Source: Escherichia coli O127:H6 str. E2348/69
GTDB lineage: Bacteria; Pseudomonadota; Gammaproteobacteria; Enterobacterales; Enterobacteriaceae
DNA length: 64,000 nucleotides
Assembly (NCBI RefSeq): GCF_000026545.1
Contig: NC_011601.1
Reading direction: 5' to 3' (one strand)
In this document: positions 26,522-29,749 of the stretch, piece by piece
Numbering within the stretch: position 1 is the first letter of the stretch
Layout of the letters: each line of letters opens with the position of its first letter
Made by a program: the position numbers and the translations under genes
Notes under the pieces: model-generated
Told to the model about the DNA's origin: nothing
What the model saw: the letters and a program-made list of their open reading frames with translations, nothing else
The model's database searches: none

Positions 26522-27252
26522 TTAAGGCTTGCGAAAATAGTCGTCCATTATTTTCGTCAGCTCCGGACGTTCCCCGTCATCATTGATGGCAAAATCCAGA
26601 AAAAAAGCATCTGCTTGCGGCGTTCGGTTTTGCGCCATCAACCGGAAGGTGAGGGGGCCTGACCAGGTTTCGGATGGGCTGATGTGCTTATCAGGGCCGA
26701 AACTCTCCCATGCGTTGGGCGGTAATGTTTTGCACGCGGTGAGTTTTGGTATGTGGTATTGCAGCTCTGTTTTGTGCAGACATTCCCCGCCAGGAAATAC
26801 CAGGGTTTGTTGCTCATCATTAAAATGGGTTGCCGTGCTGAGCACCAGTGTTTTGAGCGGTCGCCCTTCCAGCGCGGCGGCAGTAGCCTTATGGTGTCCG
26901 TCGAGCAGAACGCAGAGATAGGAATCAGGGAGATACCAGGCCAGAGCGCGGGCGATTCCAGTTTTCGAGAGCAGACAAAAACCGGGCGGCTCCCTGTTCA
27001 TCCTCCGCAAAACCGCTGTAGACAAATTCCGCACAGGTAGGGCAATCAGCCTCGGACCAGAAACGTATTAACGGGACATCCTTGCCAGCAGAGCGAATGG
27101 ATAAGACCGTGCGAGTGCGGATCGTAAATCACACATTGACGCAGAAATCCTTTCCCGGACTTCACCGAAAAAATGACGCCCGCAGCGGTATTTTTCAGCA
27201 GACGTACTTCAGGTTTTCGAAAGGGGAAAAAGCATGGCCACTCCTTAGCCAA
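26522..27252 (-). pseudogene. Hypothetical accessory gene of about 240 codons, split by an apparent frameshift near 27046-27068
   Basis: Two adjacent minus-strand ORFs (27046..27252 and 26522..27034) in different frames; the downstream frame stays open up to 27067; no family confidently recognised; stop abuts cueR stop. Confidence 0.45.
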
Positions 27253-27323: not shown

Positions 27324-27530
27324 TTACCCATTAATCCCCGTTTGCACCGAAAGAATATGCTGCAAACTTTCTACCATTATGCGCCCCGACTGAAATAAGC
27401 CTTCCTGGATTTCGTTGTTAACATTCACAGCGTGAACCAGGGAGGCTAATAACACCACTTGCAAGAAGGCAAAAATAAACGCACCGATAATCATAATATG
27501 CGTCAGGGGGATTTTCCTTTGCTCCTTCAT
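27324..27530 (-). CDS. Small single-pass membrane protein (68 aa), hypothetical
   Basis: ORF track; one hydrophobic helix IIGAFIFAFLQVVLLASLV; start overlaps the stop of the upstream lipoprotein gene by 4 bp. Confidence 0.5.
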   Translation of the reverse strand: MKEQRKIPLTHIMIIGAFIFAFLQVVLLASLVHAVNVNNEIQEGLFQSGRIMVESLQHILSVQTGING

Positions 27531-27949
27531 TTTAAATAACCCACAAACTGGCCTTCTTTCATTAAGGCGACTTTTCCTGTGTGATGATAAACAATGACAT
27601 TATACAGACCCGACTGATAAACAGTAGCATCTTTATTGTCTTCATCAATTACACATAATGAATCATTGAGATAAGCAAAGTTCTTACTGCTCATTCTAAA
27701 GGTCATGCCAAATCCTTTATAAATGGCTTTCTTTGCCGCCTGGGCATGTTGTGCGGCTTCTGCATTTTTAAATGCCTGCGCCTCGGATGCACTTAAAATA
27801 GCCGTCTGACGCTGTTGTTCTGCGAGGTAACAGGTGTCATGGCTGACGCCCTGCGCCTGGCAATCTGCGATGCGGGAAGTGGGTGAACTACAGCCAGCCA
27901 GTAATATAACCGCCAGCAGGGAAAACGATTTAATGGAGCTATTCATCAT
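27527..27949 (-). CDS. Predicted lipoprotein (140 aa), hypothetical
   Basis: ORF track; signal peptide with lipobox LLAGC followed by S at +2; not a K-12 core protein I recognise. Confidence 0.6.
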   Translation of the reverse strand: MMNSSIKSFSLLAVILLAGCSSPTSRIADCQAQGVSHDTCYLAEQQRQTAILSASEAQAFKNAEAAQHAQAAKKAIYKGFGMTFRMSSKNFAYLNDSLCVIDEDNKDATVYQSGLYNVIVYHHTGKVALMKEGQFVGYLK

Positions 27950-28002: not shown

Positions 28003-29019
28003 TTAGAACGAATATCCCACGCCGACACCCGCACCGAAATCAGATTGTGTATCCGCAGAAATACCTGCTTTAAGTACCGTATGCGTTCCGGCATTAAAAG
28101 ATGTTCCGACAGACACCGCAGATTCACCGTTAAAGGTTCCCGCTCCCGCTGAGACCATCATCAAGTCACCGGTTTTCACCTGTGGTTGTGAGGCGATAGC
28201 GATGGCAGATGCAGTTCCCGCATTGGCTTCTTTACGATTGTCCTCAACTTCGTTTTTTAGCGAACTGAAATGGTTATTGAGCGTGTTAATTTGCTGGCTG
28301 TTATCTGCAACCCGTTTTTGGGTGTTGGTTAACTGTTGCTGCGTTTGTGCGGAATCTTGTCTCAGACTTTCAATTTGCTCATGTGCCTGGACAGACTTCT
28401 GCGCCAGACTTTGCATTTGTTTATCGTATTGAGCCCTTTCTTTTTGCTGTTGTGCTGCCACATCGGTTGTCAGTGCATTCATTTTCTGCCCTTGTTCCGT
28501 GGTAGTGCGCTGATTAGCCTCATTTTGAGCCGCCAGCCTGGCATTAATCATCTCCTGATAATGCGCGGTATTTTGCGTATCTCCAGTCGCGGCGAGCGTT
28601 TTTTGTGTGGCTACGATCTGCGCCTGTTGCTCTGTAATTTGCGTTTGCTGGGCATCAGTTACCGTAGACTGTCGGGCGTTGATCATGCTCTGATAACGGG
28701 CGGTTGTCTGTACATCACCTGTAGCGGCAACGGTTTTTTGTCCTGCGTCAGGATCTGTCTGGACAGGGGGAGTCTGAGTGGTATCAGGTGTTTCAGAAGG
28801 GATGTAGTGATGTTCAGTCAAATAGGTATATGCAGCGGGGCTGTTGTCGGTGCGTTCTAAAAAGCGGGTAATCTTCTGCTCAATCTCCGATTGCGACATG
28901 CCCGAGTTAATGGCTGAAAGCTCTGTTGCCGCCGCTTCAATGGTATCACCAGCTAAAACAAAAGGGCTGGATGTTGCTGAAATTATGAGTGCCAGTAAAG
29001 CTACGTTTACAGTTTTCAT
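28003..29019 (-). CDS. Short trimeric-autotransporter-like protein with YadA-type C-terminal membrane anchor (338 aa)
   Basis: ORF track; N-terminal signal peptide, Q/T/A-rich coiled-coil repeats, C-terminus ...GESAVSVGTSFNAG...GAGVGVGYSF resembling the YadA anchor and ending in an aromatic residue. Confidence 0.7.
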   Translation of the reverse strand: MKTVNVALLALIISATSSPFVLAGDTIEAAATELSAINSGMSQSEIEQKITRFLERTDNSPAAYTYLTEHHYIPSETPDTTQTPPVQTDPDAGQKTVAATGDVQTTARYQSMINARQSTVTDAQQTQITEQQAQIVATQKTLAATGDTQNTAHYQEMINARLAAQNEANQRTTTEQGQKMNALTTDVAAQQQKERAQYDKQMQSLAQKSVQAHEQIESLRQDSAQTQQQLTNTQKRVADNSQQINTLNNHFSSLKNEVEDNRKEANAGTASAIAIASQPQVKTGDLMMVSAGAGTFNGESAVSVGTSFNAGTHTVLKAGISADTQSDFGAGVGVGYSF

Positions 29020-29386
29020 TCATTTTCTCTCGATCAAAATAAGTTGCATTAATGTTTCTATAAGAAACAAATAATATTGTTATTAAGAAATAAAATACGT
29101 TGCAATATGATCGAAATCTACGCCGCCATTTGTGTGATGTAAAGCGCATTTTTGTCTGTTGTAAGCGTAAATATCACCAATAAGAAACAAAAAATGTTTC
29201 TTTTATAAATTAAAAAGGAAAACATTTCGTGCTCTTTCAATGTAAAAAAGAGTAAAGACTTGTTTTGATAAGCGAAATAAATTCTGTTTCTGGACTAAAC
29301 GTGAACCGGTTCCTGATGTGTGCTAAAATGCGTTTCTTTGATAAATCTCAATTTTTAAGAGGTTTACGCCAGGCAGGAACATTTAA

Positions 29387-29749
29387 ATGAATGAATTTGA
29401 GAAGATTTTTAATGAAATGAATCTGGACCGGGCATTGCTACCGATCCTTTTTCGTTCGAACCGGTCAACAGTGTGGAAGTATTTAAGCGGCGATAGTACG
29501 GCTCCTGCCTCAGCTATGTCACTGATTATGCTGTTGCAGTTAATCCAGAAACGAAACCCCGATCTATTAGCCGAATGGTTAACGCTTTCTGATTTCACCA
29601 TTCCGCCAGAAGTTTACCTGGACCAGCCTGATTACTGGAAAGGGTGGGTGTATACCCAACACAAGGTCAATAAAAACGTCCTGGAATATCTAAAAAAACA
29701 TTATCCGGATGAAGACCAAAAAAGTATGGGTAAAGGCCGGGAAGAGTAA
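29387..29749 (+). CDS. Putative HTH DNA-binding regulator (120 aa), hypothetical
   Basis: ORF track; HTH-like segment RSNRSTVWKYLSGDSTAP; divergent from the autotransporter-like gene across a 370-bp AT-rich region. Confidence 0.45.
   Translation: MNEFEKIFNEMNLDRALLPILFRSNRSTVWKYLSGDSTAPASAMSLIMLLQLIQKRNPDLLAEWLTLSDFTIPPEVYLDQPDYWKGWVYTQHKVNKNVLEYLKKHYPDEDQKSMGKGREE

Follow-up and report, generated by a model that had tools for sequence, protein, structure and literature searches.

Trimeric autotransporters (TAAs) are usually built and diversified by the internal duplication of stalk modules. Adhesive heads of a known fold are frequent among these proteins, but they are not obligatory.

One described break in coiled-coil stalks is the beta-layer, which has the consensus [aliphatic]-A-T-K-[polar]-[DE]. 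At such a site, the heptad register is lengthened by 2 or 6 residues, and three residues in a row depart from the helix and pair between the chains. Examples are IENKADKAD in OMP100 of Actinobacillus and MATKDDIAN in Tcar0761 (Hartmann et al., 2016, eLife 5:e11861, PMC4786415).

Here, we describe a pair of repeat units within a small gene of Escherichia coli O127:H6 str. E2348/69. The stretch of DNA that we analyzed (64,000 nt, hereafter the window) matches the E2348/69 genome and its annotation at 100%. We propose that the two segments are copies of a 26-residue coiled-coil stalk module in a small TAA, and that the repeat is old and stable, with rare in-frame remodelling. We put the probability of this reading at about 80%.

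A probable small trimeric autotransporter

All alleles of the gene occupy one cassette between ybbJ and cueR. To judge from its sequence and its predicted structure, the 338-aa product is a TAA (type Vc) in its architecture, with a signal peptide, an N-terminal domain, a stalk, and a membrane anchor (Table 1), and it would presumably trimerise on the cell surface. The anchor matches the YadA_anchor family of Pfam (PF03895, E = 7.2e-12, 45.6 bits versus a cut-off of 22.7). In the AlphaFold2 (AF2) model, the anchor forms four beta-strands within residues 287-337, and the protein ends in ...GYSF, with a terminal Phe. With this model as the query, the top four matches from Foldseek were the anchors of Hia and YadA (probability 1.00). 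The sequence matches of the full protein in the PDB were also only to anchors (AtaA, Hia, and YadA), with no similarity to the solved stalk fragments of EibD, SadA, or UpaG. The Pfam, PDB, and Foldseek results agree with an earlier note on this DNA, which had called the gene autotransporter-like.

Table 1. Coordinates of the gene, its parts, and its neighbours within the window
Feature	Position	Strand	Basis
CDS of the 338-aa trimeric-autotransporter-type protein	28003..29019	-	ORF list and translation; RefSeq WP_000859804.1
Predicted Sec signal peptide, aa 1-23, MKTVNVALLALIISATSSPFVLA, followed by GD	28951..29019	-	Read from sequence
Small helical N-terminal domain, aa 24-70	28810..28950	-	AF2 and conservation
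Pro/Thr-rich linker, aa 71-93, predicted to be disordered	28741..28809	-	Sequence; AF2
Repeat unit 1, aa 94-119, QKTVAATGDVQTTARYQSMINARQST	28663..28740	-	Diagonal scan, translation
T100-G101-D102 of unit 1; stalk helix starts just after	28714..28722	-	AF2 helix from residue 103
Spacer from unit 1 to unit 2, aa 120-138, Gln-rich and built of heptads	28606..28662	-	Allele alignment
Repeat unit 2, aa 139-164, QKTLAATGDTQNTAHYQEMINARLAA	28528..28605	-	Diagonal scan, translation
T145-G146-D147 of unit 2, predicted break of the stalk helix	28579..28587	-	AF2
Rest of the coiled-coil stalk, aa 165-278	28186..28527	-	Heptad layout; AF2
YadA-type membrane anchor, aa 279-338	28006..28185	-	Pfam, PDB, AF2, Foldseek
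Downstream co-oriented gene for a 140-aa lipoprotein (z0638 homologue), lipobox LLAGC	27527..27949	-	Translation; O157 annotation "lipoprotein"
Divergent 120-aa ORF (z0640 homologue), same island	29387..29749	+	

The quality of the AF2 monomer model is moderate: its pLDDT has a mean of 69.6 and is about 63 near the helix break that we discuss below. Its stalk helix at residues 148-276 runs into the anchor with a pLDDT of 80-95, and residues 202-268 of the stalk have a regular a/d heptad register with Asn at d positions (N240 and N261). At the other end of the protein, the features of the signal peptide that we identified by eye are K2, a hydrophobic core, and V-L-A ahead of the predicted cut; the family consensus in this region has SAFA before the cut and GDT after it. 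The N-terminal domain is predicted to form helices at residues 27-34, 43-56, and 61-69 (pLDDT about 75). It is kept across all alleles and is also present in two other TAAs (P0129 and P0146), and it has no match in Pfam. More broadly, residues 24-93 have no match in Pfam or the PDB, and we see no adhesive head with a fold known from TAAs. (Residues 75-104 have a pLDDT below 50.) The family of this passenger is a narrow one: among 1.84 billion cluster representatives, 31 belong to it.

The lipoprotein gene downstream belongs to the conserved cassette, which is present in all alleles. No SadB-like partner or HTH regulator emerged among the neighbours: the 140-aa lipoprotein and the 68-aa and 120-aa ORFs have no significant match to a family or to the PDB.

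The gene has been studied under another name. It is gmrA, or Z0639 of O-island 29 of EHEC: the published cloning primers match both ends of the CDS with 0 mismatches. Original work and a review alike treat GmrA as a transcriptional activator. Yang et al. (2018, PMC5826968) reported that the protein binds PfliA, as seen by EMSA and ChIP-qPCR, and that it activates motility. In eight strains, E2348/69 among them, motility was reported to be lost when the gene was deleted, and complementation was shown (PMC5826968). If the product is a cytoplasmic activator, as this work implies, then the repeat would lie in a DNA-binding or dimerisation coiled coil and not in a surface stalk. We consider this unlikely because the protein has an N-terminus that resembles a signal peptide and a significant YadA anchor, because it is annotated in RefSeq as a YadA family autotransporter adhesin, and because modular length variation, which we describe below, is typical of surface fibres. 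Also, the published "DNA-binding domain" of GmrA is a CDD prediction only (PMC5826968). We found no DNA-binding domain in Pfam or NCBIfam at E ≤ 1, just the YadA anchor and families that resemble coiled coils. The one DNA-binding name among these, TMF_DNA_bd, is itself a coiled-coil family and had E = 0.21 and 12 bits versus a cut-off of 35 bits. No DNA-binding fold was among the Foldseek matches of the model. If Yang et al. are right, then the cytoplasmic role falls outside of an explanation based on a TAA stalk. Under an adhesin name, we found nothing in the literature on this TAA besides the gmrA papers; the genome paper for EAEC 042 counts "two AT-2 systems".

Two copies of a predicted stalk module

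A custom diagonal scan revealed the repeat pair, which generic tools missed (neither TRF nor a seed-based repeat finder, run on the window, reported it). The earlier note had quoted the repeated peptide motif exactly, and the motif is present twice (aa 94-119 and 139-164). The coordinates that it gave for the two DNA segments need correction. It had placed them at 28556-28630 and 28675-28750, but the first of these is misplaced and the in-register identity is just 23%. The implied spacing was about 120, but the units are in fact offset by 135 nt (45 aa), of which 57 nt are spacer. Correctly placed, the units are identical at 52 of 78 nt (67%), and an extended match of 40 codons is identical at 73 of 120 nt. 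Self-comparison puts this repeat well above chance. The best non-overlapping 75-nt diagonal scored 52, compared to 37.3 ± 1.3 in 300 codon shuffles, and the protein local score was 113, compared to 32.8 ± 5.8 in 2000 shuffles. Thus, the earlier note was right that the repeat is real, but its description of near-copies at the nucleotide level was overstated, as the 67% identity is explained by shared amino acids.

The earlier note had also described the repeat as a stalk unit, and both copies are indeed inside the predicted long stalk helix. The AF2 monomer has helices at 103-145 and 148-276, and the only break within 103-276 is at G146-D147. We also ran AlphaFold on a linked pseudo-trimer (residues 104-200 three times, joined by Gly/Ser linkers of 55 residues, from an alignment of 10 rows). 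This gave a low-confidence model (pLDDT 41, pTM 0.23), which we discarded apart from the local helix break: a break of 2-3 residues was predicted at the same site in 3 of 3 copies.

Across the family, the sequence of the break is [VLI]-[AS]-A-[TLM]-G-D, and six residues (G, D, Y, Q, M, and A) do not vary among the 59 distinct units that we compared. The motif is also found in other Enterobacteriaceae TAAs that have unrelated N-termini (twice in P0125 and once each in P0127 and P0134). No Pfam family contains the unit, and Pfam gave nothing meaningful on the repeat region. A profile of the unit had no match in the PDB at E ≤ 10.

We propose that the module has three parts. The first, Q-[IL]-x-x-T-Q-K-T-[VL]-A-A, would be a lead-in phased by heptads. 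Next, the invariant [T/L]-G-D would interrupt the alpha-helix, and the coiled coil would then resume, with its register shifted, at the invariant x-A-[RH]-Y-Q-x-M-[IV]-[ND]-A. To compare registers, we computed core hydrophobicity from the family profile for different numbers of inserted residues. The worst value was for no insertion (0.22), and the values for 2, 5, and 6 residues were 0.58, 0.57, and 0.42. In other words, insertions of +2 (the beta-layer type) and +5 fit alike. Furthermore, V-A-A-[T-G-D]-V-Q-T can be overlaid on the solved nonad of OMP100, I-E-N-[K-A-D]-K-A-D. The structural model and the sequence suggest that the T-G-D break may be a discontinuity of the beta-layer or nonad type.

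Age of the duplication

The DNA similarity of the two units is no more than their protein similarity imposes. They use the same codon in 10 of 24 identical amino-acid pairs, where the codon usage of the gene itself predicts 10.1 ± 2.2, and the 73 identical bases of the extended match compare to 71.7 ± 2.9 for random back-translation of both peptides. The duplication of the 26-residue motif is ancient, and its synonymous sites are saturated. Within alleles, unit 1 shares 65-69% identity with unit 2, while between alleles, orthologous copies are 79-97% identical for unit 1 and 71-97% identical for unit 2. Because the silent sites are saturated and because other alleles contain a separate orthologue of each copy, the pair seems to be fixed in the fibre architecture of this allele.

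As there is no DNA-level trace of common descent, and as the motif is single in distant TAAs, we also considered whether the two units converged independently on one functional motif (for ligand binding or as a stalk connector), with no internal duplication. This seems improbable. The similarity covers 40 residues, and these include a lead-in that is not invariant (QKT-AAT) and a shared terminal TEQ. Also, sister alleles contain clear recent duplications of the 26-residue unit, so the mechanism of duplication is demonstrably active at this locus.

Variation in the number of units

The earlier note had suggested that the copy number might vary between strains and that homologous loci should be compared. 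The number of units does differ between diverged alleles of this locus: among 124 distinct full-length homologues, 106 have two units, and the others have none (6), one (5), or three (7). In contrast, there is no such variation in the sampled rows of the window's own allele. In all, 1,414 complete genomes were positive for the gene. This allele is present at 95% identity or above in about 1,030 complete genomes of E. coli (236 at ≥99% and 794 at 95-99%), and all 29 rows that we sampled from these genomes align as one ungapped piece of exactly 311 nt. At the protein level, the main cluster comprises 1187 members at 338 aa. There are rare variants of the short allele, and these have small deletions that are dispersed over the stalk; the number of units is unchanged in all of them.

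Two other differences in length are unrelated to the units. A 30-nt difference at O157-type loci is intergenic and lies outside the gene. In the one low-coverage genome that we inspected (H100), a large deletion extends from the interior of the gene to purE, and it is not repeat-mediated.

Across alleles, the units are spaced by 38, 45, or 52 aa, so the spacings differ by whole heptads (7 residues). The spacer of the window allele is shorter by 7 aa than that of the 471-aa and 594-aa alleles and longer by 7 aa than that of the 459-aa and 497-aa alleles, and one of the loci that we compared (L003) has a 21-nt tandem repeat in its spacer. In the 497-aa allele, TRF reports an array with a 114-nt period and 2.5-2.8 copies, and in the 594-aa allele, it reports repeats of 369 nt and 21 nt. 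One Escherichia allele carries a tandem pair of units that are 96% identical. The third unit of the 480-aa allele resembles unit 1.

We propose that the stalk would be remodelled across the species by rare in-frame events, namely the gain or loss of whole heptads in the spacer, the duplication or deletion of units, and the duplication of a 123-aa module. Such events would alter the length and surface of the fibre while keeping the phase of the coiled coil, and we infer that selection acts on these changes in length or surface.

The variation between alleles, together with the 96%-identical tandem pair, might instead point to a hypermutable (contingency) repeat, in which slippage or recombination between the copies switches the number of units among close strains. 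We think this is very unlikely for the window allele. A contingency repeat is expected to consist of near-identical DNA units arranged head to tail, but these units are 67% identical, are separated by 57 nt, have no exact in-register run longer than 9 nt, share nothing beyond the protein constraint, and were not called by TRF. Length polymorphism among close strains is also expected, but the 29 sampled rows have none, and the deletions in the rare short-allele variants leave the number of units as is. As the copies are old and have no extra DNA identity, and as the 311-nt span is constant, this is not a contingency or slippage repeat. Finally, chance similarity due to the Gln/Ala/Thr-rich composition of the coiled coil, with no true repeat, has a negligible probability: although the stalk is of low complexity and the generic tools were silent on the pair, this origin is refuted by the shuffle tests (0 of 300 codon shuffles reached the observed diagonal, and the highest protein score among shuffles was 64) and by the invariance of six residues across units from many alleles and distant TAAs.

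Comparison with described systems

An old and stable duplication of a stalk module is ordinary for TAAs, so the repeat in itself is of small importance. The unit may be of wider interest, as it is a conserved stalk element that is absent from Pfam and the PDB. Its predicted helix break makes it a cheap target for crystallography of TAA fragments as GCN4 fusions, which is an established approach.

The unit is similar to a beta-layer in several respects. The predicted break is in a TAA stalk and would cover three residues that end in Asp and that follow a hydrophobic a position and two small residues; the core downstream of T-G-D fits a shift of +2; and the element recurs along the fibre. On the other hand, the T-G-D unit has a central Gly, it matches the consensus loosely (without the K or the acidic last position), a shift of +5 fits equally well, and the units are 38-52 residues apart instead of consecutive. 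A more ambitious reading is that the unit is an undescribed connector of Enterobacteriaceae TAA stalks, with a natural break of the beta-layer type, of which each fibre would have one to three, spaced in steps of whole heptads, and that GmrA is an outer-membrane fibre whose effect on fliA and motility is indirect. We offer this as a tentative idea and suspect that it would not hold in full.

The published GmrA is the same gene as the one described here, yet a DNA-binding activator of fliA is unlike the outer-membrane TAA architecture that we detected. Groups that study motility regulation in EHEC and EPEC, or O-island 29, should know of this architecture before relying on the assignment of GmrA as a transcription factor.

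Compared with other TAAs (YadA, Hia, and AtaA, or UpaG/EhaG, Saa, and Eib of E. coli), the protein is alike in its signal peptide, in the Asn at d positions of its stalk, in its four-stranded YadA_anchor that ends in Phe, and in the variation of passenger length between strains that is driven by repeats. It differs in that it is very small, at 338 aa, and in that a helical N-terminal domain of roughly 47 residues replaces the YadA-like head, Trp-ring, and GIN domains. As for the stalk and neck repeats of TAAs from Neisseria, Haemophilus, and Bartonella, the likeness is in the in-frame gain and loss of modules, and the sister alleles with arrays of 114 nt and 369 nt are the counterpart at this locus. 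In contrast to those repeats, the units of the window allele are saturated at silent sites and their number is fixed.

The repeat and the protein that carries it

We propose, with a probability of about 0.8, that the two similar segments of the autotransporter-like gene are old copies of one stalk module of a surface fibre. When the gene was compared with itself along all diagonals, a single one stood out: offset by 135 nt (45 codons), it has 52 matches in 75 nt, while shuffling the codons gave a mean of 37.3 ± 1.3 and a maximum of 42 (n = 300). So, the repeat exists. In the protein, aa 92-131 align without gaps to aa 137-176 (24/40 identical) with a score of 113, versus 32.8 ± 5.8 for shuffled proteins (n = 2000).

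The stalk-unit peptide that an earlier note had quoted is exact and matches both units, and its reading as a stalk unit is right. Of the two ranges given there (28556-28630 and 28675-28750), one was right and the other was misplaced: taken literally they are 23% identical in register, and once corrected, 67% (52/78). The description of the segments as near-copies at the nucleotide level was overstated. The same codon is used in 10 of the 24 identical residue pairs (10.1 ± 2.2 expected from the gene's own codon usage), and 73 of 120 bases are identical, as compared to 71.7 ± 2.9 from random back-translation of both peptides. The longest exact run common to the two units is 9 nt, and neither TRF nor a seed-based repeat finder reported the pair.

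"Autotransporter-like" can be made more precise: the 338-aa protein has the architecture of a trimeric autotransporter (TAA; type Vc secretion), with trimer formation and surface display being predicted from the sequence and the model. The Pfam YadA_anchor family matches aa 279-338 above its curated cut-off (E = 7.2e-12), and sequence matches in the PDB are to the anchors of AtaA, Hia, and YadA only. A Sec signal peptide can be read from the N-terminal sequence (MKTVNVALLALIISATSSPFVLA|GD), and over the final 70 residues of the stalk the heptads are in clean register, with Asn in d positions. The four top Foldseek matches in the PDB to the AlphaFold2 model (41-sequence alignment as input; mean pLDDT of 69.6) are Hia and YadA anchors.

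The N-terminal three-helix domain, GDT[IV]EAAxTELxAIxxGMSxxExxQKIxRFxxRT, is kept in all alleles and matched no known fold by sequence. Longer TAAs whose stalks differ considerably also carry it at their tip (P0129, 708 aa, and P0146, 633 aa; the latter is from Pseudocitrobacter faecalis and contains a collagen-like stretch). This domain may be the functional "head". The antisense ORF opposite the stalk-coding region is most likely no gene but a by-product of Gln/Ala-rich codons (CAG/GCN read as CTG/NGC).

Features of the TAA gene, its protein, the island, and comparison loci from other genomes (L numbers)
Feature	Position	Strand	Remark
TAA-type CDS, 338 aa	28003-29019	-	contains the repeat; RefSeq "YadA C-terminal domain-containing protein"
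Unit 1, QKTVAATGDVQTTARYQSMINARQST	28663-28740 (aa 94-119)	-	core repeat unit
Unit 2, QKTLAATGDTQNTAHYQEMINARLAA	28528-28605 (aa 139-164)	-	core repeat unit
N-terminal three-helix domain	28810-28950 (aa 24-70)	-	
Three short helices	aa 27-69		AlphaFold2 model
Pro/Thr linker, disordered	aa 70-102		AlphaFold2 model
Long helix with single break	aa 103-276		AlphaFold2 model
Four beta-strands	aa 287-337		AlphaFold2 model
Antisense ORF, 174 codons	28336-28860	+	TTG start
140-aa lipoprotein gene	27527-27949	-	lipobox LLAGC; directly downstream of TAA gene, co-oriented
68-aa ORF	27324-27530	-	overlaps lipoprotein gene
120-aa ORF, z0640 homologue	29387-29749	+	divergent from TAA gene
Intergenic region, 367 nt	29020-29386		TAA gene to 120-aa ORF
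36-nt imperfect direct repeat	29060-29095 and 29180-29215		in intergenic region
Frameshifted remnant	26522-27201	-	adjoins cueR
407-aa hypothetical gene, intact	L005 613-1836; L010 5079-6302		counterpart of remnant
Long-allele frames	L003 2604-4412; L004 2636-4075; L005 2635-4443	-	minus strand of those loci
Tandem arrays of sister alleles	L003 3377-4091; L006 3640-3959		
Deletion in E. coli IR53017	L012 2024-2626		from inside TAA gene to purE/purK

Age of the duplication and diversity of the locus

The locus was found in 1,414 of 5,426 complete E. coli genomes and was chromosomal every time. In 1,030 of the 1,414, the 311-nt span of both units matches the window at 95% identity or more, and each of the 29 rows sampled from these genomes has exactly 311 nt in one ungapped piece. 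The protein cluster of the window allele has 1,187 members at 338 aa; the few shorter variants have small deletions dispersed along the stalk, with the number of units unchanged in all of them. In the 384 remaining genomes and in other Escherichia species, the same gene cassette holds a diverged allele, 436-594 aa long. (PGAP/RefSeq reports several of the long alleles as 349 aa, from an internal Met start; with the signal peptide included, the open frame has 471 aa in L004 and 594 aa in L003 and L005.)

Among 124 distinct full-length homologues, 106 have two units, 7 have three, 5 have one, and 6 have none. The spacing from unit to unit is 52 residues in 71 cases, 38 in 39 cases, and 45 in 8 cases, and therefore the spacer changes in whole heptads. 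Within one allele, units 1 and 2 are 65-69% identical at the DNA level, versus 79-97% for orthologous copies of unit 1 and 71-97% for those of unit 2 between alleles. As the two units are distinct types whose orthologues are closer than the paralogues, the duplication is older than the divergence of the alleles.

Sister alleles do contain close repeats. The 497-aa allele has a 114-nt (38-aa) tandem array of the unit (2.5-2.8 copies; the first two units are 96% identical). The 594-aa allele has 1.9 copies, at 96% identity, of a 369-nt (123-aa) module that is wholly absent from the window allele, and in L003 it also has a 21-nt repeat in the spacer and a 42-nt repeat. The two copies in the window allele give no substrate for slippage or homologous recombination. 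Thus, the suggestion that the repeat varies in copy number between strains is true of the series of old alleles, with 0-3 units, but not of the window allele.

If the segments are modules of a stalk, each would comprise a coiled-coil lead-in, then a T-G-D helix break, and then a conserved restart segment, and the modules would be structural elements that set the length and geometry of the stalk. From the standard alpha-helical rise, a heptad would add about 1 nm and a unit about 6-8 nm. Diversity at the locus would arise by rare in-frame gain or loss of heptads, units, and the 123-aa module; we rejected a fast switch as its source.

The island and the annotation of GmrA

Over 1.3 kb around the repeat, the sequence is 100% identical to the chromosome of the enteropathogenic E. 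coli O127:H6 strain E2348/69. The gene lies between cueR and ybbJ in an island of about 3.3 kb with low G+C (0.30-0.48 versus about 0.55 in the flanks), together with a lipoprotein gene (140 aa), two ORFs of 68 and 120 aa, of which the latter is divergent, and a frameshifted remnant. The lipoprotein gene and the 68-aa ORF are kept with the TAA gene in every allele examined, and neither product had a family or PDB match. By analogy with lipoproteins that assist other TAAs, the lipoprotein could be a biogenesis partner. The 120-aa ORF had no significant family; its sole match was weak and sub-threshold, to the HTH region of the MqsA antitoxin (E = 0.08). The intergenic region before it is very AT-rich (G+C of about 0.30). 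The intact counterpart of the remnant is absent from O157. E. coli IR53017 has lost all but the C-terminal 200 codons of the TAA gene to a deletion, and several genes nearby carry frameshifts.

This island is O-island 29 of EHEC O157:H7, whose middle gene, z0639, was named gmrA (Yang et al., 2018, Front Microbiol 9:338, PMC5826968). According to that study, GmrA activates transcription, binds the promoter of fliA, and is required for motility, with deletion phenotypes reported in eight strains including E2348/69 (PMC5826968); later reviews restate the assignment as a transcription factor. The published cloning primers ATGAAAACTGTAAACGTAGCTTTA and GAACGAATATCCCACGCCG match 28996-29019 (-) and 28006-28024 (+) with 0 mismatches; as these are the two ends of the TAA-type CDS, we identify it as gmrA/Z0639. 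RefSeq names the GmrA protein a YadA-family adhesin, and the genome paper for EAEC 042, which carries the island, counted two trimeric autotransporters. We found no paper in the literature searched that notes the YadA anchor of GmrA.

The published DNA-binding domain is a CDD prediction (PMC5826968). We found no DNA-binding domain in the 338-aa protein: the sole match with such a name was TMF_DNA_bd (E = 0.21, 12 bits versus a 35-bit cut-off), which is a coiled-coil family, and we infer that this match was the source of the prediction. Nothing in the sequence or the model supports a cytoplasmic DNA-binding protein; all of the recognisable features point to an outer-membrane fibre. A putative indirect effect on flagellar genes, e.g., via envelope stress, is a plausible alternative.

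The unit motif and the helix break

Besides the conflict over the annotation of GmrA, the only point of specialist interest is the T-G-D/YQxM stalk motif, which is undescribed. The unit follows the pattern ...[VLI]-[AS]-A-[TLM]-G-D-x-Q-x-x-A-[RH]-Y-Q-x-M-[IV]-[ND]-A..., and six positions (G, D, Y, Q, M, and A) are invariant across the 59 distinct units from all alleles. The motif recurs in other Enterobacteriaceae TAAs whose N-terminal parts are unrelated: a second E. coli TAA has two copies, and Enterobacteriaceae bacterium FGI 57 and its relatives have one each. The passenger family is narrow (31 cluster representatives at E ≤ 0.001 among 1.84 billion), and searches with the unit profile gave no match in Pfam or, at E ≤ 10, in the PDB.

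Both AlphaFold runs, of the monomer and of a pseudo-trimer of three linked copies (pLDDT of only 41), place a non-helical break of 2-3 residues exactly at T145-G146-D147, and the stalk helix begins immediately after G101-D102. Before the break, the residues at -11 and -4 from the Gly are strongly hydrophobic, as a-positions. Downstream of it, the poorest fit is that of an uninterrupted heptad register (core hydrophobic fraction of 0.22 versus 0.47 outside the core), and the best fits come from inserting 2 residues (0.58) or 5 residues (0.57). A nonad, the element that gives rise to a beta-layer in a trimeric coiled coil, is defined by an insertion of 2 residues (Hartmann et al., 2016, PMC4786415). 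The spacing of 45 residues could be made up of one nonad, five heptads, and a skip residue (9 + 35 + 1). That the T-G-D break is a beta-layer is a tentative lead, less likely than not, as the insertion of 5 residues also fits.

Overall, the repeat shows the modular build that is ordinary for TAA stalks. The nonad was first seen in the stalk of another TAA, OMP100, as I-E-N-[K-A-D]-K-A-D, in which position d gives way to three residues, the last of them Asp (Hartmann et al., 2016, PMC4786415). The V-A-A-[T-G-D]-V-Q-T of our unit can be superposed on that pattern, and it matches the published beta-layer consensus loosely.
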